A stretch of DNA of 64,000 bases. Source: Candidatus Saelkia tenebricola. GTDB lineage: Bacteria > Omnitrophota > Gorgyraeia > Kaelpiales > Kaelpiaceae. The first letter of the stretch is position 1, and the number at the start of each line of letters is the position of its first letter. Where the stretch lies: the NCBI GenBank assembly GCA_030765145.1, contig JAVCDA010000082.1, positions 27,152 to 91,151 of the forward strand. Direction: 5' to 3'. Shown here one piece after another: positions 14,476 through 47,299 of this stretch. Both the position numbers and the translations under genes were made by a program. A model generated the notes under the pieces. The model was not told where the DNA came from. It worked only from the letters and a program-made list of their open reading frames with translations, and did not search any database.

Positions 14476-16049
14476 CTTTTAATACGCTTAAAAATTTTTA
14501 TCTTGCACAATCTATACGTTTCATAGTCCATTGTTATCTCTTTTATGAAAATAAATTCGCCTAACCTTTTTTTAAACTCATCCTGCAGTGCTAATAAATG
14601 CTCCTTTCGATAACCTGGAAAATCACTTTCAAAATCGCTCTCGATATAAAAAATAAAATCTGATTTGTCTATAATATCCGAGGGTAGCATTGCATTATCA
14701 ACTAAAGATAGCAAATCCTCGAATTGTACTCTGCTTGAGATTTTCTTCATTGCACATGCATATTTTATTACATCTATGATAAATGGATTAACGTCACATA
14801 AATTGTCTGGGACAACACCAATTTCTACAGCTTTATCCTTTTCTCTAACTATATTAATTATTTCATCAACATTTCTTATCTTCGACATAGGAAAGACTTT
14901 TCCAATAATAAAATAATTACTAACTGGATTCGACTTACTATGCTTTAATTCAACAAAAGAAACTATAGACAAACTACATGTGAGAATAAACAAAAATTTA
15001 ATGTTTACTTTTTCACCTACCTTGCCAATAGCATAGGTTATTAAAATAGCAACTCCGGGAAGCAAGGGAATAGTATGTTTTGGAAGTAATACTGCAGGGT
15101 GAAAAATCAAGATAAAAAAGGATATAACAACCCATAGAAAAATACATATTAATTCCTTCTTTTTAAACCTGATGATTTCCATAAACGCATAGAGAATACT
15201 TATCAAGCCAACCCAATAGTAGCAAGTGGAAATCTGTAAATATAGAACACCGTAATAAGGAATTAAAAATGTTTTAATCTCATAAATAAATTTAGAAAAT
15301 TGTGAACCTAAATTTTCCGATTGAACACAACGACTGAGATAACTAAAGAACAATTCCCGTGCTGGCTTATCAATCAAAACCGCTAAACACCATATTGCTG
15401 GAATAATAATCATTAACAAGCAAGCTATGAAAAAATTTCTATACGCCGGACTTGACCTTTTTATATTTAAAATATAAAAAAATACACCGGGTATTACAAA
15501 AAAGATAAAGTATGGATGAATTAAAAATCCGATTATATTTATTATTGCCCAAAATAAAGTATATTTTTTATCTTCAAAAAAACGCGAACTAATTAACAAA
15601 TAATGACTCAAAACAACAACTGCCGTTAAAGCAACGCTATGGTGACAAGCTCTTGAAAAACCTATTATTCCTGGAAAACCTAAAAGTATAATTACAGCAA
15701 TTAACCCGTATATCGGGGTTAATAATTTTCTACCCAAAAGATAGGTTGAAATAACAAGCATAATTACCCATAAAAAGTTAACCCCTGCCATTACATCCGT
15801 ATTTTCTCCAAAGAGAACGTAAAATGGAACTGGCAACAATCTTTGCAATGGCGGGATAACATTACTTCTGATTTTTTTAAAAAAATCAGAAGGGTCGCTT
15901 TTTAAAGCATGAAAATATTGGATACTGGCAGAGAAACTCCTATACTCATCATGAACAGGATAAAGCTCATCTTGTTTCAGAAAAATAAAGTGTAAAATCG
16001 CAATAACAACAATTAAAACTGCTAAGAAAATTACAGATTTCTTTTCCAA
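14472..16049 (-). CDS. polytopic membrane protein, GT-C fold-like (ArnT/PMT_2-like putative glycosyltransferase)
   Basis: At least 11 predicted TM helices; the first loop contains PVHDEYRS (DE motif in the position of the ArnT/PMT catalytic Asp-Glu); C-terminal soluble domain of about 150 aa. Confidence 0.5.
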   Translation of the reverse strand: MEKKSVIFLAVLIVVIAILHFIFLKQDELYPVHDEYRSFSASIQYFHALKSDPSDFFKKIRSNVIPPLQRLLPVPFYVLFGENTDVMAGVNFLWVIMLVISTYLLGRKLLTPIYGLIAVIILLGFPGIIGFSRACHHSVALTAVVVLSHYLLISSRFFEDKKYTLFWAIINIIGFLIHPYFIFFVIPGVFFYILNIKRSSPAYRNFFIACLLMIIIPAIWCLAVLIDKPARELFFSYLSRCVQSENLGSQFSKFIYEIKTFLIPYYGVLYLQISTCYYWVGLISILYAFMEIIRFKKKELICIFLWVVISFFILIFHPAVLLPKHTIPLLPGVAILITYAIGKVGEKVNIKFLFILTCSLSIVSFVELKHSKSNPVSNYFIIGKVFPMSKIRNVDEIINIVREKDKAVEIGVVPDNLCDVNPFIIDVIKYACAMKKISSRVQFEDLLSLVDNAMLPSDIIDKSDFIFYIESDFESDFPGYRKEHLLALQDEFKKRLGEFIFIKEITMDYETYRLCKIKIFKRIKR

Positions 16050-17398
16050 AATAATCTTAATCCTTTTTTTATGATTGCGATTCGGAAATAAAATCTTTTA
16101 TAGGCTAATCTTACTAACTGTTGTAACTCTTTTCTACTCAAATTCTCTTCCCAAAACGGAAGTTTGAAATCCTTAGATGGATATGTAATAAAATCTTGCC
16201 AATATTTTGAGGGGATTATTTTCTTATCTACCGCATCGAAATAAAGCTTTGTCTTAGGATATATAGCCAGGATGTTAAACATGCAATAATCGGGATCCAA
16301 TTTAAGGGCAAAATCAATTGTATCTAAAACCTGCACCTTGCTCTTTTCATAAGGAGTCCCGATCAAAAAATAGGCTACAGTTTCAATGCCGTGTTTCTTG
16401 CAAAGTTTAAAAGCATTTGTGATATCTTCAATGTTGGCATTTTTATTAAGCGAGTCTAATCCTTTATCACTGGAAGCCTCAACGCCAAAATGAATTCTGA
16501 CGCAACCACTTTCTCTTAAATCTCTTACCAATGCATCTGTTACCACATTAACCCGGCCTCTAAAACTCCAGGAGATGTTACAACTTTTAATCTGAGAAAT
16601 AAATTCCTGAACCCATTGGATATCAGTATTAAAAGTATCATCCACAAAATATATCTCCTCAAACCCCAGTCTTATACAAGCATCGATTTCCTTAAGTACA
16701 TTATCAACAGAACGTTTCCTGAATTTGAAATTTGGCACCAAACAAAAACTGCAATGAAAAGGGCACCCTCGTGAAGAAACCATGGTAGCAATTCTTCTTT
16801 TCCCGGATAAACGGTAGCTATACTTCTTCCCCAGCATTAAATCCCGGGCCGGAAACTCTATTTTATCTAAATCATCTATTACCGCAGGAGCATACTCCAC
16901 GGGATTTTTATTTTTGAAATAAACCCCTTTTATTTCATTTAGATTTTCTTTTCTCTTGAAATCTAAAACCAGCTCTGTAAATGCCTCTTCCCCGTCTCCT
17001 ACAGTAATTGAATCTACACCATTTAATCCAAGTGCCTCTTGAGGAAAAAGAGTAACATGCGGACCACCTAAATTAACATGAGTATGCAAGGAAATTTTCT
17101 TAATTATTTTAACAACTTTTGAAACAGTCAAAATATTATGGGTGATTGCTAATATTCCAACTATATCAGGCTTATAACTCTTAACATATCTCGAGAGACG
17201 TTTATAATTTATTTTGGCTTCCAAAGAATCCAAAAATTTCAGTTCGATTTCATCGCTATGCCTCTTAAGTGAACTGACTAAATAAAGAAGCCCGAGTTGA
17301 GGCAAGTTGCCAAGATTTTTATTTATCAATAAAGGCAATTCCGTTGTTATCATATCTTCACATGGCGGATTTAATAAAAGTACTTTAACTCGTTTCAT
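16031..17398 (-). CDS. B12-binding-domain radical SAM protein (class B)
   Basis: N-terminal Rossmann-like cobalamin-binding region (VLLLNPP...) followed by SSRGCPFHCSFC; 455 aa. Confidence 0.85.
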   Translation of the reverse strand: MKRVKVLLLNPPCEDMITTELPLLINKNLGNLPQLGLLYLVSSLKRHSDEIELKFLDSLEAKINYKRLSRYVKSYKPDIVGILAITHNILTVSKVVKIIKKISLHTHVNLGGPHVTLFPQEALGLNGVDSITVGDGEEAFTELVLDFKRKENLNEIKGVYFKNKNPVEYAPAVIDDLDKIEFPARDLMLGKKYSYRLSGKRRIATMVSSRGCPFHCSFCLVPNFKFRKRSVDNVLKEIDACIRLGFEEIYFVDDTFNTDIQWVQEFISQIKSCNISWSFRGRVNVVTDALVRDLRESGCVRIHFGVEASSDKGLDSLNKNANIEDITNAFKLCKKHGIETVAYFLIGTPYEKSKVQVLDTIDFALKLDPDYCMFNILAIYPKTKLYFDAVDKKIIPSKYWQDFITYPSKDFKLPFWEENLSRKELQQLVRLAYKRFYFRIAIIKKGLRLFWKRNL

Positions 17399-17447: not shown

Positions 17448-18869
17448 CTATGTTTTTCCTGTAAAATACCATTTCAAATACGCTCCTCCTGCAAAAAACC
17501 AAGAAGTTGCATCTGCACAAGATTTAAAGGAAATTAACCGTCTAAAAACATATTTTGGATTGAGAAAAAATTCTGCTGTCATTTTTTTTTGTAATATTAC
17601 TAAATCTTTTGCTGAGAAATGTTCAGTATGCCACTTTGGAATTCTTCCAAACATCTCAAAATCCTCCCAATCAATATCTTCATGCAACATATCTTTTGCT
17701 TTCATCATCTCATGTATAGCTGTGCCAGGAAAAGGAACAATAATTGCAACTGAAATTATCGTCCAGGGCAAAGAATGAATCATTTCTCTTGTCATTTCAA
17801 TATCTTCCATTGTCTCTGATGGATGTACCCCAATAATAAAATTACCTTCAATATGCTCAATTCCTGCCTCTTTTGCCCAATAAACGGCTTTTTCGATCTG
17901 GGCAAAAGAAAAATTCTTCTCGATTAAATCACGAATTCTTTGACTACCCGACTCTATTCCAAAAGTAACTTTTCTACAACCGCTTTTGACCATCATTTTA
18001 AGTAAATTTTTTGATATTTTATCTACTCTTGTTTCACAATTCCAGGATTTTACACCATGTGAAAGAAAAATATCACAAATCTCCAAAGACCTCTCTTCAT
18101 CTAATCCAAATGTATCATCCGCAACTACTATGTGTTTAACTTTGTTCTGCTCTATGAGCTGCTTAACTTCCTCTTCAATAAATTCTGTCTTTCTAAACCT
18201 AGCCTTTCTTCCAAATGCAGCGGAAACAGCACAAAAAGCACAACTAAATGGACATCCGCGAGAAGTAAAAAGCTCAGCTGAAGAAATTTTATTTGAAAAT
18301 CCCTTTGCTGAATACCCCGGTTGTTTCCTATTTTTAAAAAGATCCCTGGCAGGGAATGGGATCGAGTCTAAATCTTCAATTAAATCCCTCAAAGGATTTT
18401 GAATTATTTTCCCCTCGCTTCTGTAAACCAAACCTTTGATTTCTTCTGTCTTTTTTTCATTTTGAATACAATCACACAATTCAAGTAAAGTAACTTCTCC
18501 TTCTCCGTAAACAAGATAGTCAAAGTCAGAAAATTCATGAAGTGTCTGCTGAGGAAGACAATTAGCATGAGCTCCGCCAACAACAGTAGCTATCTTGGAA
18601 GAAAAAGATTTTACTACAGCACATATTTTGGCTCCGTTTTTTATTGTTGAAGTTGTACAGGAAATTCCTACAATCCCAGGAGAATTTGTTTTTAACTTTT
18701 CAAAAAAAGCAATCTCATTATACATTTCAATCTCATAATCAATAATCTCAACGTTATACCCGAATTTACGTATATATGCTGCTAAATAAGCAAGATTCAT
18801 CGGTTTAGTATGAGGTAAAAGACACAAATGCTGTAACAGGCTAGGCGGACGAATCAATAAAATATTCAC
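17448..18869 (-). CDS. B12-binding-domain radical SAM protein (class B)
   Basis: MNILLIRPP... B12-binding N-terminus followed by SRGCPFSCAFC; 473 aa. Confidence 0.85.
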   Translation of the reverse strand: MNILLIRPPSLLQHLCLLPHTKPMNLAYLAAYIRKFGYNVEIIDYEIEMYNEIAFFEKLKTNSPGIVGISCTTSTIKNGAKICAVVKSFSSKIATVVGGAHANCLPQQTLHEFSDFDYLVYGEGEVTLLELCDCIQNEKKTEEIKGLVYRSEGKIIQNPLRDLIEDLDSIPFPARDLFKNRKQPGYSAKGFSNKISSAELFTSRGCPFSCAFCAVSAAFGRKARFRKTEFIEEEVKQLIEQNKVKHIVVADDTFGLDEERSLEICDIFLSHGVKSWNCETRVDKISKNLLKMMVKSGCRKVTFGIESGSQRIRDLIEKNFSFAQIEKAVYWAKEAGIEHIEGNFIIGVHPSETMEDIEMTREMIHSLPWTIISVAIIVPFPGTAIHEMMKAKDMLHEDIDWEDFEMFGRIPKWHTEHFSAKDLVILQKKMTAEFFLNPKYVFRRLISFKSCADATSWFFAGGAYLKWYFTGKT

Positions 18870-20194
18870 CTAAGATACCTCACGCCATCTTTAAAATCAT
18901 CGATGATTTTACATCCCTCCTTAAGCTGATCATGAATCCATGAATATTTAAATCTACCATTTCGGCCGGACAATTCCAGATTACTGAAATTGTTTAAAAA
19001 ATCAAAAATTTTCTGGATATTTTTTTCACTTTCTATTTCTAAAACAGGATAGGCATATTCTAATCTTTCTACTGTACCGGATAATATTTCTCCCCTTGTT
19101 ATCCACCCTATTTCTATAAGCTTCAAACAAGCTATTTCTATTAGCTCTTCATCCTTCATTTGCCACAACTCGTCTGTTACCTGAGAAGGAATTTCTACCA
19201 TCAGTGAAGTCTTTTCTTCTGGAGACATAGCTTTGCTTCTGTTTTTGGGCTCAGAAATTCTCATAAAAGGAAATTCCAAAGAGGGAAAATAAACTGTACC
19301 ATGTTTAGTTACTATTTTTTTATCCAAAAATAAAACCACCAATATTACGCTGCGAAAATACAGTTTTCTGGCTAAAAGCAAAATTTCTTCCGGCGGAGAA
19401 GGCTCCAAAATCTGCAAAAACATATTGATGGGTATCGTACTTACTAACTTATCTATTTTTACTCCTTTTTTCCCATTAATTTCTACTTCTTGTATCCGTT
19501 TATAGTTATGTAATATTTTACTTACCTTAGCCTCTTTTAAAATATTTTTATTCCCGCAAAACTCTGCTATCTTTTCACAAATTGCACCAATTCCAACTCG
19601 CGGATAATAAAAAGTGCCTTCTAAATGTTGGGCAGAAACATTCTTTCTTAAAAAGCTATTTAAATTTAAACCTCCTAGTCTTTCCCCATGGACATTCAAC
19701 GAAAGCTTATCGCAAGATATACCCCATAATTTTTTAGAATAATTTAATAAAAAAAGCCCTGCAATAGTCTTTCCATATCGCTGTAAAACAAAATCTTCAA
19801 AATTATTACTGCTCTTCCTCAGCCTTGAAAACAAAACTTCAATTAAAGCTTTTCCAAACATAGTAAATCCTATATTTTTTATTAAATTTAGCGGCGAGAG
19901 TGGAAAATCGATTAATTTTCCTTGATGATAGATACAACTAGGAATAGTTATTTTTTCTAACTCTTCTCCTAACAAGCCTTTTGCCATTTCTGTGACATAA
20001 ACATCTTTATTGTGAAAACGATGTGCTCCTGAATCAAAAAGAAAATCTTGATGACTAAATGTTGTGCTCAAACCACCTACTCGATTTCTAGCCTCATAGA
20101 TTGTAAAAGACATGCCTTCTTTCTTCGCATAATAGCCGACAGCTAACCCCGCGGTACCCGCACCTAAAATAGTAATGTGTAAGGGCTTATTCAT
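18866..20194 (-). CDS. FAD-dependent oxidoreductase (amine oxidase / UDP-galactopyranose mutase-like fold)
   Basis: N-terminal dinucleotide-binding motif ILGAGTAGLAVGYYAKKEGMSFTIYEARNRVGGL; GAHRFH and YHQGKLIDFPL motifs resemble UGM / protoporphyrinogen-oxidase-like flavoenzymes. Confidence 0.7.
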   Translation of the reverse strand: MNKPLHITILGAGTAGLAVGYYAKKEGMSFTIYEARNRVGGLSTTFSHQDFLFDSGAHRFHNKDVYVTEMAKGLLGEELEKITIPSCIYHQGKLIDFPLSPLNLIKNIGFTMFGKALIEVLFSRLRKSSNNFEDFVLQRYGKTIAGLFLLNYSKKLWGISCDKLSLNVHGERLGGLNLNSFLRKNVSAQHLEGTFYYPRVGIGAICEKIAEFCGNKNILKEAKVSKILHNYKRIQEVEINGKKGVKIDKLVSTIPINMFLQILEPSPPEEILLLARKLYFRSVILVVLFLDKKIVTKHGTVYFPSLEFPFMRISEPKNRSKAMSPEEKTSLMVEIPSQVTDELWQMKDEELIEIACLKLIEIGWITRGEILSGTVERLEYAYPVLEIESEKNIQKIFDFLNNFSNLELSGRNGRFKYSWIHDQLKEGCKIIDDFKDGVRYLR

Positions 20195-20204: not shown

Positions 20205-22109
20205 TTATTTTAAATATTGTTTAAAATCTTTATTTACGATATACATATCGTGCCAGATTAAAAACATCAATAATGCCCAGAGAAAACGCCCGTTATCCTG
20301 TTTTTTATTCAAGTGCTGCTTCCATTTAAACGCTATAAATTCAAAGTTAAAAAGACCTGTTTTTTCAATATTCTTTTTGGAAAAATATTTTTCCCCCAAA
20401 GTTTTAAACTCTTTTAAAAACCAAATTGAATAAGGCAATTCAATACCGAAATTCTTACGTCGGATAATCTCTTTTGGCAGGTAAGATTTCATTGCCTGCT
20501 TTTGAAAATATCGACGGCGGAAATAATAAATCTTATATTTTGTCGGAATTTTACTTGTAAAATCCACCACATTTCTATCCAGATACGGGAACCTTGCCTC
20601 AACAGAATGCGCCATTAACATACGGTCATTCTTCAGCATTAAATTTCCAATAAGAAAATATTTGAAATCAATCAACCCGATTTTATTAAGCTCATCAGCA
20701 AAATTGTTATTTTCAAATAACTCTCTAAATAGCTCTTCGCTTTCTTTAAACCGATGATGAAGTAAAAAAGATGCTTTCTCCTTTGTATTTAAAACATGGC
20801 GCCAAAAATAATGAGCAGCAGGCACATCTTTTTCACATCCTTCAGTAAAACGTTTGGCCAAAAAATCAAAACTCAACTTACTATATGAAACAGGCAAAAG
20901 GGAACAGCATTCTTGAACAAGTCGTCTTAAAAACACGGGAGTAAAATGACGATATGATTTGGCAATCTTATAGGCAAGATGCGTTTCATATGCATTAGAC
21001 ACTTCATCCCCGCCTTCTCCTGATAAAATCACTTTTACGTATTTTTTAGCTTCTTTGCTTAATAAGAAATTAGGAATTGTTGAACCATCATTAATTGGCT
21101 CATCCAAATAAGCCATATGTTTAAAAATGTTTTCTAAAATATCATTTGGATTGACAATAATTTCATGGTGAATTGAACCGGCGTAGGATGCCATTATTTT
21201 TTGGTATTTAGATTCATCGAAACTGGGATTGTTTATTCTTAAAGAAAACGTATGCAGCTTACTACTGTGCCCTAACATTTTAGCTAAACCTAAGATCGTA
21301 CTGCTATCCATCCCCCCGGAAAGAGTTACTCCTACCGGACAATCAGCAATGAGATTATTCTCTACAGACTGTACCATAACATTAAAAAAACCATCAATCG
21401 CTTCTTTCTTACTCATTGTATAATCAGACTGAAAATTAATTTTAAAATATTCACGCAAAATAACCGTCTGTTCTTTAAAATCAACCTCGAGTAAATGGCC
21501 GCCATCAATTTCCTTAATTCCAGAAAATGCAGTCATAGTCCCAGGAATATAACCTAAAGAAAAATAATGATATATTGCTTCATGGTTTACGCGAGGCGTA
21601 AACCAATCCAGCGCAAAAAAAGATTTTATTTCTGAAGAAAAGTATACACATTCGCCTTTTTGCATAAAAAATAAGGGCCTCGTGCCATAATGATCCCGTA
21701 CAATGTATGCTTTCCCTTCTTTTTTATCATAAAGGCAAAACGCAAACATCCCTGATAATTTGTGAATAAAATCAATACCTATTTGATCATAGAGATAAAG
21801 AAGAACCTCTGTATCTGAGCAGGTAATAAGTTCTTCTTTAAACTGCTTCCTGAGTTCCTGAAAATTAGTCACTTCTCCGTTATAGGTTAACCAAACATTC
21901 CCCTTTGCATTACTCATCGGCATATTGGACCTATCATCAGGATCAATCACCTTAAGCCTGGAATTTCCTAAAAAACATCTTCCATCATGAAAGCTTCCCT
22001 GATAATCCGGACCTCGATGATTTAAAAGCAAACTCATTTCATTGCCTTCTTTGTAATCATGCTCATTTAAGTTATTCTTTAAACTTAAAATCCCGCTAAT
22101 GCCACACAT
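20205..22109 (-). CDS. asnB: asparagine synthetase B-type glutamine-dependent amidotransferase
   Basis: N-terminal MCGI nucleophile Cys2 of the Ntn glutaminase domain; SGGMDSS PP-loop in the synthetase domain; 634 aa. Confidence 0.9.
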   Translation of the reverse strand: MCGISGILSLKNNLNEHDYKEGNEMSLLLNHRGPDYQGSFHDGRCFLGNSRLKVIDPDDRSNMPMSNAKGNVWLTYNGEVTNFQELRKQFKEELITCSDTEVLLYLYDQIGIDFIHKLSGMFAFCLYDKKEGKAYIVRDHYGTRPLFFMQKGECVYFSSEIKSFFALDWFTPRVNHEAIYHYFSLGYIPGTMTAFSGIKEIDGGHLLEVDFKEQTVILREYFKINFQSDYTMSKKEAIDGFFNVMVQSVENNLIADCPVGVTLSGGMDSSTILGLAKMLGHSSKLHTFSLRINNPSFDESKYQKIMASYAGSIHHEIIVNPNDILENIFKHMAYLDEPINDGSTIPNFLLSKEAKKYVKVILSGEGGDEVSNAYETHLAYKIAKSYRHFTPVFLRRLVQECCSLLPVSYSKLSFDFLAKRFTEGCEKDVPAAHYFWRHVLNTKEKASFLLHHRFKESEELFRELFENNNFADELNKIGLIDFKYFLIGNLMLKNDRMLMAHSVEARFPYLDRNVVDFTSKIPTKYKIYYFRRRYFQKQAMKSYLPKEIIRRKNFGIELPYSIWFLKEFKTLGEKYFSKKNIEKTGLFNFEFIAFKWKQHLNKKQDNGRFLWALLMFLIWHDMYIVNKDFKQYLK

Positions 22110-25898: not shown

Positions 25899-26495
25899 CT
25901 AATAAATTTTACAACTATGCAAATACATGTCTTTTTTAAACAATCTGAAAAACTTTTCCTTTTTAAAACCCATTTTTCTTAACAACGAGTTAACTGCAAT
26001 ATTTTTGATAGAAGTAGAAACTTTTACTTTTTTTATTTTGTTTCTATTCATTACACTAAGTACACTGCCTATTAAATTAATAGCATTATTTTCTCCACGC
26101 GATTGGGGATTAATTGATATAAATAAAAGCTCTGCATTTACACTTCTAATGTATGACTTGAATGGATAAAAAGGTAACTCTAAAATTTGCAAAAAACAAA
26201 TTGGATTAATAAGCAATTGCTTAAAATAGATTAAAAATAATTTCCAATCACTCAGTAATTCCGAAAATAATTTTTTGCTGTTCAATGCTGCCATAATAAA
26301 ACCGGCAACGTTTTTATCTTCTACAACTAAGCTGATACAATTTTTAGATTTTATAATTAACCCTAAATATCGCCTTATGAAATTACATCCGAACTTTAGA
26401 AGATATGAATCAAACATATAATCGACATAAAGCTGAAAAATTACATCTAAATCTCCCGGGGATGCATCTCTGATTATTTTCTGTGTTTCCACCAT
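25899..26495 (-). CDS. putative GNAT-family N-acetyltransferase
   Basis: 198 aa; N-terminal IRDASPGDLDVIFQLY and a central QSRGENNAINLIGSVL segment resembling the GNAT acetyl-CoA-binding motif; weak. Confidence 0.4.
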   Translation of the reverse strand: MVETQKIIRDASPGDLDVIFQLYVDYMFDSYLLKFGCNFIRRYLGLIIKSKNCISLVVEDKNVAGFIMAALNSKKLFSELLSDWKLFLIYFKQLLINPICFLQILELPFYPFKSYIRSVNAELLFISINPQSRGENNAINLIGSVLSVMNRNKIKKVKVSTSIKNIAVNSLLRKMGFKKEKFFRLFKKDMYLHSCKIY

Positions 26496-38765: not shown

Positions 38766-38833
38766 AATTTCGCCTCCCTTTATACTTATTACATTATTTT
38801 TATTTCTACTCCATTACACTTCTTTCCTTCATT

Positions 38834-38864: not shown

Positions 38865-38930
38865 GCTTTTTATTTACCTTAAAGTTCACACTTATCCTAA
38901 CATTCTGAGCCCGCCCCTTGCTTGAATAGA

Positions 38931-40775
38931 TTAAAAATCCTTAAATGTATACACTACCTCTTTATCCGATACCCAATATGGTTTTCCCATATGTTGTTGT
39001 AAAAAATAAATCAACAATGCTCCGGATTGCTTGGACAGTAAATCTTTATACACCACTAAATGTGTAAAAGAATGCTTTTTTAAATCTTCAATTTCATGAA
39101 TAATTTTTATATAAGCTTCTGTCCCTTCAGTAGTTATGTTTTCATACTCATCAGTCATAAATATTTCTGCTGCTAAAGTTTCCTCTATTCCTGCATTAAA
39201 ACCGCTATCCTTGATTAAATCTAACCGACTAAATTTATCAAGATAATTGATAAATAAATTATTTTTTAATGAAGGAGAAATGCCCTCAAATGCATCCAAA
39301 CTATAGATAACCTTTTTTTTATGATATGTTTGATAATAGAGACCTGGACGCAATAAGCGATAAATAAAATGGTTAATTGGAATTTCAATAATTGCTGCCC
39401 CAGGCTGATTTTTTAAGTCTATAACAAAATCCGGAACTGTAATAATGCAACGCCTAAAAGGATACGGCACAGGAGCAATTAGAAGATACTCCAATACAGT
39501 AGCTGTGACTATAAATAGAGCCAATATCGGCTTATGCCTTATTTTAATCTTTTTTAAGACATTAGCCAATCCAATACCCGCAAGTATAAATAAACTTAAA
39601 TACATCAATATGCTAAAACGGAAAGGCAAAGAAACATACGAAGAAAGAGGCAAAATATGATCTATTATGGAATAGGGCAGCATTTTTAAAAACAACATAT
39701 TCTTTATTTCTAAACCATTTATGCGAGGATACGGACCTAACGACAAGAGAAAGAAAAACACTGCGCAGATTGCCCAAAAAATTCTAATTGGATTCCCATG
39801 CCTACTAATTAATCCTATAATAGCTAATATTAAAACAATCCACCCTATATAAGTACTATGGACAAAATAGCCATCCTGTGATTCCGGGAGAACCAAAGAG
39901 TTGTATTCTGAACTTCTATCTTCACTCCTTTCTCGAAATTGATTAATTTTAAAACAGCCATTTAAATCTGTAAAATTTATATTTTTAAGAGCCCATTTAA
40001 CAGATTTTTCGTTTTTTATACCTACAACCTTTTTTTCATTTGTAACCGATTTAAAAAATACCCAATAAAATGGTGTACATAATGCTACGGCTATTATTGA
40101 AATAAATGCAATTCTCTTTAGAATAGCTTTCTTGTTCCCAATATCATTTTGGATAACTGCATTGTAAATCAGAAAAAAAATAGTAAATATTCCCAAAGAA
40201 AAACCTATATACCAAGAAGAAACCGTTGCTAAAAATAAAAATAAAATTCCCGATAAAATTACACCTAAATTGTTTTTTTCTTTTGCTCTAAATAATGATA
40301 GAACGTAATACGGCACCCAGCATACCCCTAAAAATTCATCCGTACCGTTATGAATAGTGCTAATAATAACCGGTGAAATAGAATAGCAAAGCCCTGCATA
40401 GAAAGCAGCGCTTTTGCTTTTCACTATATACCCCGCTAATTTATACATACCTAATGCTGCAATTAACATTAGCGCCATTATCATAAGATTATAAGAAACC
40501 GGTAATGGCAAAAATAAATAAAGCGGTAAAATCAAGATTGCGTTAATTAAGTTTATAGGATAAAAATACCCTCCCTGAGGATAAAAAATATTATCAGTAA
40601 AAAAAAGAGCGGTTCCATTTAAAATGCTATCTTTAACAAAACATATCCCCCATAAAGCATTCCAGGTATCTGTATATTGAGACCCTAAAACTGTTTTATT
40701 TAACCCTACAATAGTCGGAAATGTTATCGCTAAAATTAAAATAACATACAATAACAATACTAAACTTGTGGTCAT
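38931..40775 (-). CDS. polytopic membrane protein, paralog of the 22250/24063/43767/45605 family (putative GT-C-like)
   Basis: N-terminal motif TDTWNALW...NIFYPQGG matches the family signature; at least 12 TM helices and a C-terminal soluble domain. The ORF-track start at 40862 overlaps the upstream gene by 53 nt, so the in-frame Met at 40775 (MTTSLVLLL) is preferred. Confidence 0.5.
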   Translation of the reverse strand: MTTSLVLLLYVILILAITFPTIVGLNKTVLGSQYTDTWNALWGICFVKDSILNGTALFFTDNIFYPQGGYFYPINLINAILILPLYLFLPLPVSYNLMIMALMLIAALGMYKLAGYIVKSKSAAFYAGLCYSISPVIISTIHNGTDEFLGVCWVPYYVLSLFRAKEKNNLGVILSGILFLFLATVSSWYIGFSLGIFTIFFLIYNAVIQNDIGNKKAILKRIAFISIIAVALCTPFYWVFFKSVTNEKKVVGIKNEKSVKWALKNINFTDLNGCFKINQFRERSEDRSSEYNSLVLPESQDGYFVHSTYIGWIVLILAIIGLISRHGNPIRIFWAICAVFFFLLSLGPYPRINGLEIKNMLFLKMLPYSIIDHILPLSSYVSLPFRFSILMYLSLFILAGIGLANVLKKIKIRHKPILALFIVTATVLEYLLIAPVPYPFRRCIITVPDFVIDLKNQPGAAIIEIPINHFIYRLLRPGLYYQTYHKKKVIYSLDAFEGISPSLKNNLFINYLDKFSRLDLIKDSGFNAGIEETLAAEIFMTDEYENITTEGTEAYIKIIHEIEDLKKHSFTHLVVYKDLLSKQSGALLIYFLQQHMGKPYWVSDKEVVYTFKDF

Positions 40776-40809
40776 ACTAAACCAGGATTTTTCTTTTGTA
40801 ATCGAACTT

Positions 40810-42342
40810 TTACATTTTTTCATAGAAAAATACTTTTGCCCCTTTAAATTTTTTCGATTCAATAATTTTAAAGTATTTATCTATCTGCTTTAAAAGCATA
40901 CGATCTTGAGGACTTTCTTCTACTATTTCAAATTCAAAAGAAGAAAGAATCAACCAAAAATTTTTTTTATCTTTTAATGCATAGTAGCCCGGTTTGTCAT
41001 GGTATCTTTCATAGCTATCAACTTCCGAAAATATTATCCTATCTGTTTCTTGAAAAGACGCCGCTAAGCAAACATTATTTTCTTTTAACCGGGCAATTTC
41101 CCCCTTTGACCTATTTGCATAGTATATGAAAGGATAAATCGTATTACGGCATGTGTGATATACAGCATCCCCTTCTTCATAATTTTTACCAATATACCGT
41201 ACTATTCCCCGGTGATCTTTCTTCCTCTGAATCCAAACATGCTCTTTATCAGAATAAGGAAGAATATTATTATAATAATTAACTAACGTTATTGTTGATA
41301 AAAAAGCTATACAAAACATACTTAAAACCAGCTTTTTATTGTTCAAACCAGACAAACCAGAAGCCACAATTAAATAATAGAACAATGCACTGGAAATAAA
41401 ATATCTATCTACATACATCGACTTAAACTTGGATGTTATAAAAATAGCCCCGACAGGCAAAATTAAACAAAGTAAGCTAAGTATCAAAGATTTATCTTTT
41501 TTAAACTTCATAACACCTTGGATGAAGAAAAAAACAAATATAGCAACAGTACACAAAGAAACCAAATACACAGCGTGATAACCTATGCTAAAAGTCTTAA
41601 GGGTTAAAAATAAAGATTTTAAAGAAACTGCCGGCGCCCAAAAATATTTATACGTAGATGTGGATTTTTTTATATTTTCTAATGCATTGTAACTTAATAC
41701 TAACCAGGGAGAAGATAGTAAAAAAATTAAAATATTGCCTATAAAACATCTTTTTTTTATTTTTTTACTTAATTTTCTAAAAATTACGGAAATAAAAATT
41801 ATTTCGGCTATCCAAAAAAATACTCCTATATAATGAGTATACATATTAAGCAAAGTAATTATTACAAAACCTATCCAGAAACCATTTGTTTCATTTTTTA
41901 AAGATCTGATAAAAAGATATGCAGAAGATAAAGTAAGCAATGTAATTAAAGAATACATCCTTGCTTCTTGAGAATAATAAATCTGAAATGGAGAAATCGC
42001 TAATAAAAAAGCGCCAATTAATCCTACTTTATCTGTGAAAAGCGCTTTTCCTACAAGAAATATCATTAAAATAGAGATCGAACCAAAAATTGCCGAAGGA
42101 AATCTTAAGCCAAATTCAGAATCAGTAATTTGCATCCAAAATTTCATAAACAAACCATATAAAGGAGGAGTAAAATCTTTTGGTGATATCTGCTCTGCAT
42201 CTTGAACCTGTATAACAGAAAGGGCTTCGTCATACCAAAGACTATAATTACTTAAATTATAGAACCTTAGACTTAATCCTAATAATACAATTAAAACCAG
42301 TAGAGACATAATTGATTTTCTTTTATAAAAAATTACACCCAT
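40810..42342 (-). CDS. glycosyltransferase family 39/83-like protein (ArnT / PMT_2-type GT-C mannosyl/aminoarabinosyl transferase family)
   Basis: N-terminus LLVLIVLLGLSLRFYNLSNYSLWYDEALS has the YxxxLWxDEA signature of ArnT/PMT GT-C enzymes; about 11 TM helices; C-terminal soluble domain. Confidence 0.7.
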   Translation of the reverse strand: MGVIFYKRKSIMSLLVLIVLLGLSLRFYNLSNYSLWYDEALSVIQVQDAEQISPKDFTPPLYGLFMKFWMQITDSEFGLRFPSAIFGSISILMIFLVGKALFTDKVGLIGAFLLAISPFQIYYSQEARMYSLITLLTLSSAYLFIRSLKNETNGFWIGFVIITLLNMYTHYIGVFFWIAEIIFISVIFRKLSKKIKKRCFIGNILIFLLSSPWLVLSYNALENIKKSTSTYKYFWAPAVSLKSLFLTLKTFSIGYHAVYLVSLCTVAIFVFFFIQGVMKFKKDKSLILSLLCLILPVGAIFITSKFKSMYVDRYFISSALFYYLIVASGLSGLNNKKLVLSMFCIAFLSTITLVNYYNNILPYSDKEHVWIQRKKDHRGIVRYIGKNYEEGDAVYHTCRNTIYPFIYYANRSKGEIARLKENNVCLAASFQETDRIIFSEVDSYERYHDKPGYYALKDKKNFWLILSSFEFEIVEESPQDRMLLKQIDKYFKIIESKKFKGAKVFFYEKM

Positions 42343-42405
42343 TATATATTCTGTTTTTTATTTTTTTTATTTTGTAACCAATTTATTTGAATATTAAAAT
42401 CATTC

Positions 42406-43770
42406 CTAAACATATTCAGATATACTTTTAGCAGATTCTATGCCCATTTTGATAGCTTCATCCATATTAGCATATTTGAATTGCCCTTGACGACCAGTTG
42501 AAGACAAATTCTCTATACGCTGTAAAACATCTCCTGCTTCAGATAAAATTTGTTTATAATTTAAGGAATATATAGGATAGGCATTCTCTATACTACTACT
42601 AAAACAATCAATTATTTCTTTCTCACTTATATTTAATCCAATTTTTTTTAATCCTTTTAAAGATGATTTCAATATTACACTATCTTCTGCAGACCAAATT
42701 TCATCCCCCTTACTACAGGAAATCTCTAAAGATATCGAGGCATATCCTGTAGGCGTATTATTAGGGTGCCAATTTTTGGGTTCTTGAAGTCGGAAAAAAA
42801 TTATTTCTTTGCTGGGAATATATATCCAAGTGTAATCAGTTACTTTCTCTCTTCTTAGCATGAGATTTAATATTTTTACAGACCTATATTTTAATACCTC
42901 ATCAACTTTTAAAGAATCTATACCTAAAGGAGGATTTAAAACCTTTATTAACTTATTAATCGGAATGGTAGAAATAATATATTTTGGACAGAAAATAATC
43001 TTATTATTACCTTGAAGACAATCTATTTTCAACACCTTTAGCTTATCATGATGAATGGCCAGAATATTTGTATCAAAAATAAATTCTGCCCCTTTTTTTT
43101 CTGCAATATTTTTAAACTCCTCGGCTATTTGTCCAATACCACCCTGCTGAGGGTAATAAAAATCATCATATAAGCTTTTAGAAGAGGTTAATCTTTTGAA
43201 AAAAACATTAAGAATTATCTGTTTATAGTCTAAATTAGGAATTCTTTCAACCGCCCAATCAGATGACATCATAGAAGGAGATATTCCCCATAATTTTTCG
43301 TTGTATTGTTTAAAAAAACTTTGATATAAATAAAATCCAAATTTACTAATTAAATATTGTTCCAAATTTATATCCTTTTCTCTCCCTACTAACCTGCTGG
43401 TCATTTCATACATTAATGACTTAAAAATACCTATTTTATCTGTCAATCGCAGATTAAAATTTAAATCATGCATGTTTAAAGGATACCCAAAGTATCTTTC
43501 CTTCCAATAAACCATACTTTTGCGTGGACGTTTTACTAAATCTTCTCCCATTATTTTTTTTACTAACTGTAATATTTCCACATGTTTTGTTAAAAATCTA
43601 TGTCCCCCTAGATCAAATAAAAACCCGTCTTTATGTAATGTCCTACACATACCTCCTGCATTTGGTTCTTTCTCTAACACGATAACTTTAACGCCTTTTT
43701 GTGTTAAATAATGTGCTGCAGCAAGACCGGATATGCCCGCCCCTATTATTAAAACATCGGTCTTAATCAT
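42406..43770 (-). CDS. FAD-dependent oxidoreductase (UGM / amine-oxidase-like), paralog 3
   Basis: VLIIGAGISGLAAAHYLTQKGVKVIVLEKEPNAGGM; GGHRFL; VYWKERYFGYPL motifs. Confidence 0.7.
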   Translation of the reverse strand: MIKTDVLIIGAGISGLAAAHYLTQKGVKVIVLEKEPNAGGMCRTLHKDGFLFDLGGHRFLTKHVEILQLVKKIMGEDLVKRPRKSMVYWKERYFGYPLNMHDLNFNLRLTDKIGIFKSLMYEMTSRLVGREKDINLEQYLISKFGFYLYQSFFKQYNEKLWGISPSMMSSDWAVERIPNLDYKQIILNVFFKRLTSSKSLYDDFYYPQQGGIGQIAEEFKNIAEKKGAEFIFDTNILAIHHDKLKVLKIDCLQGNNKIIFCPKYIISTIPINKLIKVLNPPLGIDSLKVDEVLKYRSVKILNLMLRREKVTDYTWIYIPSKEIIFFRLQEPKNWHPNNTPTGYASISLEISCSKGDEIWSAEDSVILKSSLKGLKKIGLNISEKEIIDCFSSSIENAYPIYSLNYKQILSEAGDVLQRIENLSSTGRQGQFKYANMDEAIKMGIESAKSISEYV

Positions 43771-45608
43771 ATGTTGTGTATTTCATAAATAATAATTTCA
43801 TCATTAGTGGAACAATCCTCCTCAGGATTTACTAAAATCTGATTAAGTATTAATCTAATCTCATCATAGTTTTCTTCGCTCGGCAAATCTTTTTTGTGTA
43901 CTAGAATGTACTTGTAATTATATTTCATAAGTATATTTATACTTTGCTGTAATTTTTGATTATCTATAACGCAGTTAGAAACAGAAATCTTCTCGTTGCT
44001 TAAATCCTCGAGTATATTCAGCAAATAATTATTTTCTATATCAGGGGGATAATTTCGAGAGACAATATGTGCCGGGACATGACCATTTAACCTTTTTTTA
44101 TTATGTATTACCTGATAATAACTATATTTATAACTTTTTTGTGGCAATCTATCTAATATATTCGAATTTCTTGTAAAGGGGACTTCAATAATAGCAAAAT
44201 CAGCACAATTCTGGGCAAATTTTAAATAAACTTCAGGCACAACTATAGGATTATGCGGTAATACAAAATGAAACTGCGTTGAAAAAATAAACAATAAAAA
44301 CACAATAACAGTAAACAATACCTTCTGTCTTTGCTGTAACTTATATTTATTAAAAATTACATCCATTCCATGCCCCGATAGCATGGCCAGACTTAGGATA
44401 GAAATTATACAAAATCTCAAGGGAAATTGAACCCTTCCCAATCCTGGAATAAAACGCGAACACACCGTATAAGGCATTATGTTGATCGTTTTTACTAATA
44501 AACGCTCACCTATTATCAAGCAAGGACCAAAAGCTAAAGACGTAAAAAATAAAAAACAGAAAATGTAGAACAAAACCTGTCTGTTTTTAAACCTCAATAA
44601 CGCTATTCCTGATAAAAAAAATGGAATAATCCAAAGCTTAAAGTAAAAAGGCCTATGCCAATCCACTTTTGAATCATGTATAAGGCTTTTAGCATCAAGT
44701 GAAGATTCAAATTTAATCTGGAACCAGGCTCCATAATAGTTTTCTTTTACATTGGAATATAGTGCTTCCAACATAACATTTTCATTATTAATTTCTGAAA
44801 TATTGTTTAAAAATTTTCTATCTATTTCTGATATTTGTTCCTCCTGAGAGCTATAATCTATACTTCTATATACTAAAAAAAGAAAGCTTCCGATTATTAA
44901 AACCCATAAAATTACTTTAGGAATAAAAATAGATGGCTTATTTAAAACACCCTTATAGTCCAAATTAAATACAAAATACACGATTGTAAAAAGTAATAAT
45001 ATGTAGCCAACATACCAGCACCATGCCGCTGTCATAATAAACCAGAAACAGGAAAGCAGGGTATATTTTACTGTCTTTGATTCAAACATTTTGCATAAAT
45101 AAAGTATATATAAAAACCCCCATCCTAAATTAACAAACTCTAAAAACCCATGTTTTATATGAAAATTAATAAGGGGATTAAATGCTAGCATGTACCCGGT
45201 AAAAAAACCTATCAATTTACTCTTGAATAAATAACTGGTTAATAAATATCCTCCCAAACAACTAAAAAGTAGTGAAAATAAAATTGTAAGATTATATGTA
45301 ATGTTATGATTATTAAATACAATCTGGATAGGAATTGTAAAATACGACAGTAGAAAACCACTATTGCCATTCCATATATCGATACCATCCGGATAGCAAA
45401 TATATTCGGTAAAATAGAACCCTTTGTGCAAATCTATTAAAGATTTCTTTGCCCACCAAAAATCCCAGTAGTGAATGTATTTATCCACAACATTTAACCC
45501 AATACCCTCTTTGTCAAAATAGAAAGTCAAAGGAACAGTTGCAGTTGCAATTAAAATAAGGGTTATATAAGCAAAAACTATTACTATACTTGTGAATTTG
45601 GCTTTCAT
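43767..45608 (-). CDS. polytopic membrane protein, paralog family (putative GT-C-like)
   Basis: N-terminal motif HYWDFWW...ICYPDGIDIW; multi-TM; C-terminal soluble domain; 4-nt overlaps with both neighbours. Confidence 0.5.
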   Translation of the reverse strand: MKAKFTSIVIVFAYITLILIATATVPLTFYFDKEGIGLNVVDKYIHYWDFWWAKKSLIDLHKGFYFTEYICYPDGIDIWNGNSGFLLSYFTIPIQIVFNNHNITYNLTILFSLLFSCLGGYLLTSYLFKSKLIGFFTGYMLAFNPLINFHIKHGFLEFVNLGWGFLYILYLCKMFESKTVKYTLLSCFWFIMTAAWCWYVGYILLLFTIVYFVFNLDYKGVLNKPSIFIPKVILWVLIIGSFLFLVYRSIDYSSQEEQISEIDRKFLNNISEINNENVMLEALYSNVKENYYGAWFQIKFESSLDAKSLIHDSKVDWHRPFYFKLWIIPFFLSGIALLRFKNRQVLFYIFCFLFFTSLAFGPCLIIGERLLVKTINIMPYTVCSRFIPGLGRVQFPLRFCIISILSLAMLSGHGMDVIFNKYKLQQRQKVLFTVIVFLLFIFSTQFHFVLPHNPIVVPEVYLKFAQNCADFAIIEVPFTRNSNILDRLPQKSYKYSYYQVIHNKKRLNGHVPAHIVSRNYPPDIENNYLLNILEDLSNEKISVSNCVIDNQKLQQSINILMKYNYKYILVHKKDLPSEENYDEIRLILNQILVNPEEDCSTNDEIIIYEIHNI

Positions 45609-47299
45609 TTTAACTTATACATGCTTATTCGTTCATCGGAGTTATCTATTAAAATACAGCTTTCTAACAACAACCGTTCAAGCGCTTTTTTTGTACCTTC
45701 GTTTAAAAACTCATTATGAAGTAAAAGATAGAGAAATCCGTCTTTTTTAAGCTCAGAGCAAGATTGAACTAAAATTTCGATTTCGGATTTAGACATATAT
45801 ATAACGTTACCTAGATTGAACAAAATTAAATTTAAAAAAGGATTTTCTTCTATGTAATCCCAATGCTTTATATTTTTGGCACTGGGAGAAAGATAACTTA
45901 CCGCATAAGGAATAGATTTCTCATGTAATGTTTGGTAATACATATACTTGCCACAAAGTAGATGATTGTAAAGATCAAAAGGAATATCAATAATTGCATA
46001 ATCATTTTTATCTTTGGCCAATTCCTGATAAATGGCTGGTATCTGCATATCGGTTACTGGTAAAGGATACGGCCCGGGAGATACCAATAAAACCTCAGCA
46101 ATTATTGTTATTGCAGTGATTGAAACTAATAATTTATTACGCCTATCTCTATTTATTATTTCCACAAGAAAGAGCATTCCATAACCTGATATTACAGCAA
46201 TAATCAATAAGCATACAGCAAATGCACGATATGTGTTGATAACAGGTAAAAATTTACTGGGCAAATAAAAATTATAAAAAACATGCTCAAATAATGAAAG
46301 ACGACAACCCAATGTTAAAATCAAAAAAAATATCCCTAAAAAACACCATTTTACTACCTCTTTTCTATGCCTTGAAACAACTGCAAGCAAAGATAACGAT
46401 AAACAACTGAATCCAATGTAAGTAGATTTCATAAAATGCCTTACTGTTGAATCAAAAACTAATTTCCCGGGCGTAAAAAAATCTTTTATATCTACTATAA
46501 AATCAAGCTGACTTTTATAAATATCTATGGAGGTTTTAAAAAAAATGAACCGCGTAATAAGAACATACGCCATAGGGGCAATAAAAATTGCATATAAAAC
46601 TAATACCCAAAAACAAGATAATAACGTTTTTTTATAACAGACAAATTTAGCTCTCATAACAATAATTATAAAAATATAAAGCAGAGTAAAGAATAAAAGA
46701 TAAAGCCCGTAATACCAACAAGATAACGTGGTAAATAACAACAACAACCCCGACATAAAAATATATCTTCTACGGTTTGTATTTATTAATTTTAAAAACA
46801 TAAGGATGTACAGGGGTAAAAACACCAAGTTAATGGTTTCCAAAGCCCCATTATAAATTTGTCCAAACACATATGCATTTATTCCATATATTATTCCGGA
46901 TATAAAACTTGCATATCCATTATGTGTTAAATATTTTGCGAGAAAAAACATGGCAACACAATTTAAAAAAATTAGCATCATAACCAAAAAATTATAACTA
47001 GTAGTAATGTTGAATAGAAAAGTAAACGGAATTGCTAAAAAATCCGTAAACAGAATCGGGATATGACGATGAACATTAACTCCGGCAGGATAAAAAATTT
47101 TATCTGTATAAAAATCTGCTTTTAAAATTTGATTAAAAGCTGTCTGATCCCACCATATATGCCAACAACTGACCCAAACATCATTAAACTTATCTCCCAA
47201 CACATGAGTCGATATGTCAGGAAACAGAAAATAAAATATTCCTATCACAATTAATAAAAATAAAACCACCGCAATCCAATTGCTATTTATTTTCATCAT
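45605..47299 (-). CDS. polytopic membrane protein, paralog family (putative GT-C-like)
   Basis: N-terminal motif DVWVSCWHIWWDQ...IFYPAGVNVH; multi-TM; 564 aa. Confidence 0.5.
   Translation of the reverse strand: MMKINSNWIAVVLFLLIVIGIFYFLFPDISTHVLGDKFNDVWVSCWHIWWDQTAFNQILKADFYTDKIFYPAGVNVHRHIPILFTDFLAIPFTFLFNITTSYNFLVMMLIFLNCVAMFFLAKYLTHNGYASFISGIIYGINAYVFGQIYNGALETINLVFLPLYILMFLKLINTNRRRYIFMSGLLLLFTTLSCWYYGLYLLFFTLLYIFIIIVMRAKFVCYKKTLLSCFWVLVLYAIFIAPMAYVLITRFIFFKTSIDIYKSQLDFIVDIKDFFTPGKLVFDSTVRHFMKSTYIGFSCLSLSLLAVVSRHRKEVVKWCFLGIFFLILTLGCRLSLFEHVFYNFYLPSKFLPVINTYRAFAVCLLIIAVISGYGMLFLVEIINRDRRNKLLVSITAITIIAEVLLVSPGPYPLPVTDMQIPAIYQELAKDKNDYAIIDIPFDLYNHLLCGKYMYYQTLHEKSIPYAVSYLSPSAKNIKHWDYIEENPFLNLILFNLGNVIYMSKSEIEILVQSCSELKKDGFLYLLLHNEFLNEGTKKALERLLLESCILIDNSDERISMYKLK

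Follow-up and report, generated by a model that had tools for sequence, protein, structure and literature searches.

A mosaic island of flavoenzymes, radical SAM enzymes and GT-C membrane proteins beside lipopolysaccharide genes in Candidatus Saelkia tenebricola

How does a single locus come to hold three enzyme families in several copies each, and what could these enzymes do together? The question arises in a 64,000-nt stretch of the genome of Candidatus Saelkia tenebricola (Omnitrophota), here called the window, to which all coordinates refer. Two proteins encoded in it match NCBI entries of this organism at 100% identity. In the window, flavoenzymes resembling UDP-galactopyranose mutase (UGM), cobalamin-binding (B12) radical S-adenosylmethionine (SAM) enzymes (B12-rSAMs) and membrane proteins of the glycosyltransferase C (GT-C) type recur within short distances. 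An initial annotation described one gene triad in three places between 16031 and 47299 and proposed that this island had grown by module duplication. All the open reading frames named there are real and correctly placed, and the three flavin adenine dinucleotide (FAD) enzymes, the B12-rSAMs and the GT-Cs were confirmed. The real island is larger: it occupies 13537-50736 (37 kb) and consists of 27 densely packed genes, all on the minus strand with the only exception of the pair 22250-25865 (Table 1). According to profile searches (Pfam, NCBIfam) it contains three UGM-like flavoenzymes, ten radical SAM enzymes (six B12-rSAMs and four others) and seven GT-Cs. Further genes encode an AsnB amidotransferase, a DegT aminotransferase, a U32-family protein with a conserved partner, a probable GNAT acetyltransferase, a PP-loop protein and a secreted, weakly LolA-like protein.

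We favor, with moderate confidence, the reading that the genes of 13537-50736 build and tailor an envelope glycoconjugate in an anaerobe and that they form a mosaic island which varies between strains and is composed of separately inherited cassettes. Its paralogues are old members of their families, and each has orthologues of its own elsewhere. The analysis establishes families and folds, the age of the paralogues, the mosaic gene order and the proximity to LPS (lipopolysaccharide) genes, while substrates, sequence of reactions and acceptor are inferred. On this reading the locus is of a known kind, a variable envelope-glycan locus, and the unusual part is its enzyme set. In the searchable literature no such locus is described, whether for the gene combination, for Saelkia or for radical SAM/glycosyltransferase loci of Omnitrophota.

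Age and inheritance of the paralogues

The three families do recur as reported, but the repetition of one triad was a selective view: even the original list names no GT-C for the second module, and the triads omit the B12-rSAMs 26474 and 27901 as well as the GT-Cs 22250, 24063, 38931 and 40810. We refer to the proposed modules as A (47338/45605 + 43767/42406), B (36120/34778) and C (18866/17448 + 16031/14472). They might stem from an ancestral triad that was duplicated twice in the island, its three copies acting in assembly-line sequence and contributing one modified sugar each. In favor of this explanation, all three families are multi-copy in one island, and no flavoenzyme is more than three genes away from its nearest B12-rSAM or its nearest GT-C. 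Such proximity is, however, frequent in random gene orders. When the order of the 27 island genes was shuffled, the observed pattern in which every flavoenzyme has both partners at most three genes away recurred in 32% of the shuffles, and the observed direct adjacency of at least two flavoenzymes to a B12-rSAM in 35%. What goes beyond chance is therefore that one island is so rich in the three families, and not that they are arranged in triads.

The claim that the paralogues are nearest to each other did not hold, since the island paralogues share 23-34% identity compared to 48-67% for orthologues elsewhere. The flavoenzymes are mutually 26-31% identical. Two types of B12-rSAM can be distinguished, with 27-34% identity within type I (16031, 17448, 26474, 36120), 34% within type II (27901, 47338) and about 24-26% between the types. 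The DUF2079-like GT-Cs are 23-30% identical, with the exception of 22250/24063 at 66%. Outside the island (comparison loci carry L-numbers such as L001 or L085, the latter being GCA_964562345.1), 42406 has a 57% orthologue in L001, and about 95 clusters among the matches listed outscore its island paralogues. Orthologues of 34778 reach 67% (L085) and 48% (L001), the best 120 clusters listed for 18866 are 49-64% identical, more than 35 clusters match 36120 at 50-65%, and four representatives match 45605 at 37-54%.

Phylogeny led to the same result. In neighbor-joining trees with 200 bootstraps, no pair of island flavoenzymes and no pair of island B12-rSAMs was ever sister or monophyletic (0/200), while cross-genome clades were recovered in 199-200 of the 200 replicates for 42406, 34778, 36120, 26474 and 27901. 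Gene 16031 grouped with Patescibacteria-type sequences and not with its island paralogues. For 18866, the grouping with the nearest sampled sequence reached only 58/200 in a tree sampled around 42406; its orthologues were clear in a later search. In the GT-C tree, 45605 joined outside sequences (198/200), and the sole island sisters were 22250/24063 (200/200).

Nor are the module trees congruent. The flavoenzyme 42406 is the central one of its family (196-202 bits to the other two, compared to 137 bits between 18866 and 34778), yet of all island B12-rSAMs it is 47338, its module partner, that stands farthest apart (72-74 bits to the rest, compared to 215 bits between 36120 and 17448). Different subfamilies make up the modules: module A combines a type-II B12-rSAM with DUF2079-like GT-Cs, module C type-I B12-rSAMs with a PMT_2 GT-C, and the PMT_2 and DUF2079-like groups show no BLAST link at E 1e-3.

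A search for long DNA repeats in 13-51 kb returned only two 300-nt stretches of 80-82% nucleotide identity, both belonging to 22250/24063, and no repeat of a module. This pair is a genuine tandem duplication and could be cited for growth by duplication. It is the only recent duplication in the island, belongs to no triad and lies on the strand opposite to all other island genes. Closer relatives elsewhere and incongruent partners, named beforehand as the outcomes that refute growth by module duplication, are both what we found, and the claim is refuted. We regard a twice-duplicated triad working as an assembly line as very improbable. Repeated domain families in one island do not imply module duplication, and in this island every duplication test was negative.

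Synteny in relatives and a cassette in several phyla

If not by duplication, how was the island assembled? Comparison with related loci points to cassettes. L085 shares with the window the flanking LPS, MPG, RsmB and TamB-like genes at 62-78% identity, and its TamB-like gene runs straight into the orthologues of 36120, 34778 and the DegT gene. This locus lacks the 13-kb block 37911-50736, which contains nine genes and the whole of module A (among them one flavoenzyme, one B12-rSAM, four GT-Cs, the SPASM radical SAM enzyme and the PP-loop protein), and has a 200-bp intergenic gap (8462-8662) instead. L001 keeps orthologues of 43767, 42406 and 37911, followed by a PMT_2-like gene and then by those of 34778, DegT, 32553, 31237, U32, 29416 and 27901. 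It has no 40810, 38931 or 36120, and a GT-C takes the place of 36120, the partner in module B. In L086, the orthologues of 36120, 27901, 26474 and 25899 are contiguous, the flavoenzyme-DegT-radical SAM-U32 cassette between them being absent. Thus, each of the three relatives holds some members of the proposed modules without others, so that the modules were not inherited as units, and this lacking and swapping of members also speaks against duplication. From the mosaic synteny we conclude that the island consists of cassettes gained and lost, as in surface-polysaccharide loci. As is typical of a variable locus, it lies beside conserved LPS genes and differs in gene content between close relatives.

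The flavoenzyme 18866 is found in yet another setting. Its 64% orthologue in L087 lies among AsnB, methyltransferases, GT2, GT4, Wzy, a MurJ-type flippase and PTPS_related and PMT_2 membrane proteins; the B12-rSAM of this locus is 9 kb away and fused to a GT2. The gene of this fusion (20820-21332, running off the locus) encodes a 784-aa protein with B12-binding, radical SAM and GT2 domains, which directly and physically links cobalamin radical SAM chemistry to glycosyl transfer. In L087 and L091, too, the orthologue of 18866 has an AsnB gene upstream.

A survey of the flavoenzyme family in 80 genome loci revealed a recurring order of PMT_2, often the membrane protein Sulf_transp, flavoenzyme and B12-rSAM. 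It is present in six loci, namely L011, L015, L020, L023, L031 and, rearranged, L034, while L064 and L072 hold apparent partial cassettes cut by contig ends. The bearers belong to Thermodesulfovibrionales, Nitrospirae, an alphaproteobacterial metagenome-assembled genome, Desulfobulbaceae and Desulfobacterales, and thus to at least four phyla. Relative to L031, where the cassette spans 6692-12820, the B12-rSAM is unusually similar at 63-77% identity, compared to 39-61% in the flavoenzyme and 36-50% in PMT_2. Due to this conservation across phyla the three families probably cooperate, and the distribution suggests that the cassette is a horizontally spread functional unit.

This raises the possibility that GT-C, UGM-like enzyme and B12-rSAM form a recurrent working unit for one radical-tailored sugar, and that the Saelkia island collected non-orthologous versions of it horizontally, with no duplication involved. 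The cross-phylum conservation supports this idea, as do the GT9 heptosyltransferases beside the cassette in L031 and L015, the joining of the same families in L003/L004 and the AsnB-flavoenzyme-B12-B12 order of the window, which is kept in L091. We hold this reading tentatively, as a possible one, because L086 has the B12-rSAMs without the flavoenzyme and L001 the flavoenzyme without 36120. A metagenome search with an alignment as query gave 48 loci in which the 18866 orthologue is flanked by 4 kb or more; a B12-rSAM lies within 6 kb of it in just six of these and a PMT_2 gene likewise in six, and the window's order is found in L091 only. Similarly, in 68 of the 80 genome loci no B12-rSAM gene lies closer than 10 kb to the flavoenzyme. 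Moreover, the Saelkia genes are not orthologues of the cross-phylum cassette (about 31-36% identity).

A bolder proposal, rather doubtful at present, is that the UGM-like enzyme, the B12-rSAM and the PMT_2 GT-C, often with Sulf_transp, constitute an undescribed, horizontally mobile cassette of anaerobic diderms that would attach a radical-tailored sugar, perhaps a C-methylated furanose, to LPS in the periplasm. The Saelkia island and similar loci of Omnitrophota and Patescibacteria would then stack non-orthologous versions. In L003/L004 and in L059 (Buchananbacteria), this flavoenzyme occurs together with at least four B12-rSAMs. If true, the proposal would describe an O2-independent glycan-tailoring chemistry without a characterised member. 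The cross-phylum cassette is the most interesting lead of this study.

The flavoenzyme family is not confined to such loci and may have more than one role. In Vibrio sp. 99-8-1 (L058, 9171-16524) the homologue lies between the gene of an FTR1 iron permease and that of a large multihaem/beta-propeller protein, away from glycan genes. Further homologues occur in cultured Photobacterium (L037, L047).

Predicted chemistry of the island enzymes

What would the island enzymes do if, as we prefer, they build an envelope glycoconjugate? The designation of the flavoenzymes as UGM-like is well supported. All three (18866, 34778, 42406) match Pfam Amino_oxidase/NAD_binding_8 and, weakly, GLF, as well as the uncharacterised NCBIfam group PRK07208 below its cut-off, and in a search of PDB sequences their nearest solved relatives are UDP-galactopyranose mutases. 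The AlphaFold2 (AF2) model of 34778 (pLDDT 90) shows the FAD-binding Rossmann domain and the three-domain UGM fold, and its top 32 PDB matches are all eukaryote-type UGMs (TM 0.82-0.84). The island enzymes share with these (A. fumigatus 3UTE/3UKH, T. cruzi 4DSG) a full-length match, the histidine loop and the Arg/Tyr set, but are only about 20% identical to them and shorter (442-454 aa compared to about 510). They also belong to a family that is often linked to GT-C and B12-rSAM genes, as known UGMs are not.

Residues were mapped onto the numbering of A. fumigatus UGM via a HMMER alignment of 20 family members. Each of the three paralogues and most of the 20 members have equivalents of H63, R182, Y317, R327, Y419, R447 and Y453 (H57, R176, Y317, R327, Y398, R427 and Y433 in 42406). 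H63 belongs to the histidine loop beside the flavin, and R182 and R327 are the diphosphate-binding arginines. Of the two motifs reported as shared by the paralogues, G(A/P/G)HRF is found in all three and represents the UGM histidine loop. The second, (Y/W)xxG(K/R)xxxFPL, falls on the strand of UGM that carries Y104/Q107, and the paralogues agree with it only loosely (YHQGKLIDFPL, YCQGRYFNWPL, YWKERYFGYPL). Sugar-contacting positions are unlike those of UGM, among them the ones that correspond to F66, Q107 and N207, and in 18866 a W stands in place of N457; a substrate other than UDP-galactose is therefore likely. The flavoenzymes reach 40-72 bits against the UDP-GALP_mutase model TIGR00031 and miss its cut-off of 303.75. 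Retention of the catalytic and diphosphate-binding residues nevertheless fits a ring contraction, and this part of the chemistry proposed in the initial annotation appears plausible. So does the GT-C assignment, while an ordered assembly-line action found no support. With hundreds of members in many phyla, including cultured cyanobacteria and Geomonas, the flavoenzyme group offers a tractable route to first biochemistry.

All six B12-rSAMs pass the Pfam gathering scores of both B12-binding and Radical_SAM, and the CxxxCxxC core is visible, for example as CPYKCNFC in 36120. In this they resemble the class B enzymes HpnJ, BchE, PhpK and GenK, which have the same N-terminal B12-binding domain followed by the CxxxCxxC radical SAM core, but they fall into two subfamilies and reach no equivalog cut-off. 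Their best NCBIfam names are HpnJ, BchE and rSAM_ladder_B12, with HpnJ on top at 214 bits compared to a cut-off of 578. HpnJ and BchE are not methylases. Whether the island enzymes methylate, as initially proposed, or catalyze a ring contraction, cyclisation, dehydration or other radical chemistry cannot be told from their sequences.

Taken at face value, these names would suggest lipid tailoring, with HpnE/CrtI-type desaturases, HpnJ/HpnP/ladderane-type B12-rSAMs and a Tes-like radical SAM enzyme acting on isoprenoid or acyl chains and GT-Cs glycosylating the lipid. The match of 31237 to TrsS and to the tetraether synthase Tes, the weak HpnE/CrtI matches of the flavoenzymes and the weak LolA likeness of 37911 point in the same direction. 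TrsS is a selenoprotein, and Tes is the archaeal tetraether lipid synthase. We consider lipid tailoring unlikely, since the name matches lie far below curated cut-offs and reflect generic domains only, whereas the flavoenzymes match UGM over their full length and keep the diphosphate-binding Arg/Tyr set. In addition, genes for a cyclase, a prenyl synthase or acyl lipids are missing from the island, DegT and AsnB typically serve in sugar tailoring, and L087 has its orthologue of 18866 within a glycan locus of the Wzy/flippase kind. The enzyme 31237, whose zinc ribbon is N-terminal, is unusual company in a glycan locus, yet it is 67% conserved in L001.

The least credible of the alternatives is a cluster for a ribosomally synthesized and post-translationally modified peptide (RiPP), whose precursor peptide would be the substrate of C-methylating B12-rSAMs, of SPASM maturases and of an AsnB-like cyclase. 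Weak NCBIfam matches to a RiPP C-methyltransferase family, ApyD and a lasso cyclase hint at it. AsnB passes the cut-off for a genuine asparagine synthase instead, however, the intergenic stretches of 37530-38940 hold no plausible precursor open reading frame, and no protease or exporter genes were found. Seven GT-Cs, three UGM-like enzymes and DegT would also fit such a cluster poorly.

Three of the seven membrane proteins match PMT_2 or DUF2079/AftD profiles and in this resemble ArnT, PMT, PglB/STT3 and AftD/AftA/Emb. The other four (43767, 45605, 22250, 24063) have no Pfam hit and belong, as homologues of 38931 (BLAST), to an unnamed family, of which 45605 has 5427 representative relatives. 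An AF2 model of 45605 built from 40 homologues (pLDDT 92) shows a multi-helix membrane domain and a periplasmic C-terminal domain and matched STT3, PglB, AglB, DPY19, AftD, AftA, ALG12 and ArnT in Foldseek with probability 1.0, and judged by this model 45605 is a GT-C enzyme. Its D40 lies just past helix 1, in line with the Asp that follows this helix in known GT-Cs; across 40 family members the residue shows a conservation of 90% or more. We infer that it is the acidic catalytic residue in the first extracytoplasmic loop. An OST-type WWDYG motif was not noticed in the C-terminal domain, although no search was aimed at it. By homology alone, 43767, 22250 and 24063 are classed as GT-C-like. Unlike the fold, the sequences gave no match in the PDB: the profile of the unnamed family returned only noise against PDB sequences, and 40810 alone returned nothing. 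The listed TTG start of 38931 creates a 53-nt overlap with the end of 40810 and adds a lysine-rich N-terminus; the real start is probably among the Met codons farther downstream, shortly ahead of the first membrane helix.

Under the favored reading of an envelope-glycoconjugate island, the three UGM-like flavoenzymes would each isomerise a different sugar diphosphate, probably from pyranose to furanose, while DegT, AsnB and the GNAT protein would introduce amino, amide and acetyl groups. The six B12-rSAMs, the four other radical SAM enzymes and the U32-type enzyme could carry out O2-independent C-methylation, rearrangement or hydroxylation. The seven GT-Cs would finally act in the periplasm, taking these products from polyprenyl-phosphate carriers and adding them to LPS or to a different acceptor in the envelope. 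If this is true, envelope glycans of uncultured anaerobes receive chemistry that is rarely tied to glycans, namely cobalamin radical SAM chemistry, U32-type O2-independent hydroxylation and UGM-like ring contraction, and delivery is nearly all by GT-Cs.

Several observations weigh against this reading. Profile searches of 13537-50736 found no nucleotide-sugar synthesis genes, Wzx/Wzy, initiating transferase, flippase/polymerase or ABC exporter, and no GT-A, GT-B or carrier-loading polyprenyl-phosphate glycosyltransferase (GT2), so that the donors for the seven GT-Cs must come from elsewhere. Such genes do lie around the L087 orthologue of 18866. Neither the flavoenzymes nor the radical SAM enzymes reach the curated cut-off of any NCBIfam model that they match. 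Protoporphyrinogen oxidases are nearly as close to the 34778 model (TM 0.76-0.79) as UGMs are, and the fold alone therefore cannot discriminate between them. Flavoenzyme homologues are also found in non-glycan contexts, in Vibrio sp. 99-8-1 (L058), beside an FTR1 permease and cytochromes, and in L088, which limits the transfer of function by context. Finally, similar radical-SAM-rich loci occur in Patescibacteria (L059). Since Patescibacteria have no LPS, the acceptor need not be LPS.

Known systems resemble the island in part. In mycobacterial arabinogalactan synthesis, the UGM Glf and the GT-Cs Aft/Emb likewise combine a furanose-forming flavoenzyme with periplasmic transfer onto an envelope polymer. 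To our knowledge, the products of known UGMs are used by cytoplasmic GT-A enzymes and not by GT-Cs. The Arn pathway for lipid-A aminoarabinose (ArnB, which is DegT-type, ArnC and ArnT) shares the DegT-type aminotransferase and the GT-C, and the island adjoins lipid A/core genes. In contrast to both systems, the island has no ArnA/ArnC/ArnD, DprE1/E2, UbiA-type or GlfT homologues, and a set of ten radical SAM enzymes is found in neither system. With hypervariable O-antigen and capsule loci the island has in common its low G+C content, its position beside conserved LPS genes and a tRNA, and cassette gain and loss; it differs from them by the absence of Wzx/Wzy/ABC exporter, GT-A and GT-B and by a tailoring that is mostly radical SAM chemistry.

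Borders, neighborhood and further genes

At its low-coordinate end the island is bordered by a tRNA-Glu gene, the classical position of variable or acquired islands. No integrase adjoins this tRNA, and the only integrase-family gene, Xer-like, lies at 62845-63717, 12 kb past the opposite end. There, the island is followed by the TamB-like gene and then by the LPS core and lipid A genes. The island has a G+C content of 29-34%, its low-coordinate flank one of 35-37% and the side with the LPS genes one of 33-35%.

Table 1 Features of the island and its borders, with positions in the 64,000-nt window
Feature	Position	Strand	Evidence and remarks
tRNA-Glu(ctc)	13405..13480	-	ARAGORN and Rfam; low-coordinate border of the island
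Radical SAM without B12 domain, MoaA/PqqE-like	13537..14475	-	Pfam Radical_SAM E 1e-24; NCBIfam all below cut-off
GT-C, PMT_2 family	14472..16049	-	Pfam PMT_2 E 4e-7, above gathering score; 27% to 40810
B12-rSAM, type I	16031..17398	-	Pfam B12-binding and Radical_SAM
B12-rSAM, type I	17448..18869	-	Pfam; 4-nt overlap with end of flavoenzyme 18866
UGM-like FAD enzyme, paralogue 1	18866..20194	-	PDB best: A. fumigatus/T. cruzi UGM, E 2e-16
Glutamine-dependent amidotransferase AsnB	20205..22109	-	Pfam Asn_synthase E 7e-78; TIGR01536 above cut-off
GT-C-like, tandem copy 1	22250..24076	+	66% aa identity to 24063; homologous to 38931/45605
GT-C-like, tandem copy 2	24063..25865	+	Homology to 22250
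Probable GNAT acetyltransferase	25899..26495	-	No Pfam hit of its own; 42% L086 orthologue with Acetyltransf_1
B12-rSAM, type I	26474..27904	-	Pfam; 63% orthologue in L086
B12-rSAM, type II	27901..29415	-	Pfam; 62-63% orthologues in L001, L086
Cys-rich 267-aa protein, conserved partner of U32 gene	29416..30219	-	No family hit; 57% L001 orthologue beside U32 gene
U32-family protein, UbiU/TrhP-like	30204..31259	-	Pfam Peptidase_U32 E 1.5e-29; NCBIfam UbiU E 4e-29, below cut-off
Radical SAM with HMPTM-type zinc ribbon, TrsS/Tes-like	31237..32577	-	Pfam; NCBIfam TrsS 205 bits, Tes 170 bits, below cut-off
Radical SAM, SPASM/twitch-like	32553..33572	-	Pfam Radical_SAM E 7e-29; 67% orthologue in L001
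DegT/DnrJ/EryC1 sugar aminotransferase	33553..34770	-	Pfam E 1e-59; 59-73% orthologues in L001, L085
UGM-like FAD enzyme, paralogue 2, most divergent	34778..36118	-	AF2 model; PDB sequence UGM E 1e-9
B12-rSAM, type I	36120..37538	-	Pfam
Secreted protein, weakly LolA/GerS-like	37911..38765	-	N-terminal signal-like sequence; NCBIfam E 3e-4 to 8e-4; 37% L001 orthologue
GT-C, DUF2079/AftD-like	38931..40862	-	Pfam DUF2079 E 1.6e-8, GT-C_AftD E 1e-4
GT-C, PMT_2 family	40810..42342	-	Pfam PMT_2 E 8e-16
UGM-like FAD enzyme, paralogue 3	42406..43770	-	T. cruzi UGM E 9e-33, full length
GT-C-like membrane protein	43767..45608	-	Homologous to 38931, 45605; 49% orthologue upstream of flavoenzyme in L001
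GT-C of unnamed family (by model)	45605..47299	-	AF2 model, Foldseek
B12-rSAM, type II	47338..48873	-	Pfam; 34% to 27901, about 24% to type-I enzymes
Radical SAM/SPASM	48897..49919	-	Pfam Radical_SAM and SPASM
PP-loop ATP-pyrophosphatase-like, first gene of the island	49906..50736	-	Weak Asn_synthase match over PP-loop; SGGxDS motif as SGGIDS
TamB-like protein, flanking the island	50857..52746	+	62% orthologue in L085 with faint TamB_N match
LPS core/lipid A genes: GT4, GT9, GT4-GT9 fusion, LpxL-like acyltransferase, LpxK, WaaA	54290..62870		Pfam

The U32 gene and its neighbor 29416 are retained as a pair in L001 with 57-60% identity and might form an O2-independent hydroxylase pair acting on a glycan intermediate. 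As a candidate for a UbiV-like U32 partner, 29416 was rejected, since comparisons with 30204, with the family profiles and with PDB chains detected no similarity.

Promoter and terminator scans stayed at the shuffle level, and a scan of the window for riboswitches and other RNAs returned three tRNAs only. Besides the tRNA-Glu these are a tRNA-Ala and a tRNA-Leu in the low-coordinate flank (250-13377). The genes of this flank, none of which is related to the island, include a GH57 branching enzyme and a GH94 phosphorylase of glucan metabolism, an NfeD-NfeD-flotillin FloA operon, and CcdA together with a thioredoxin-like protein.

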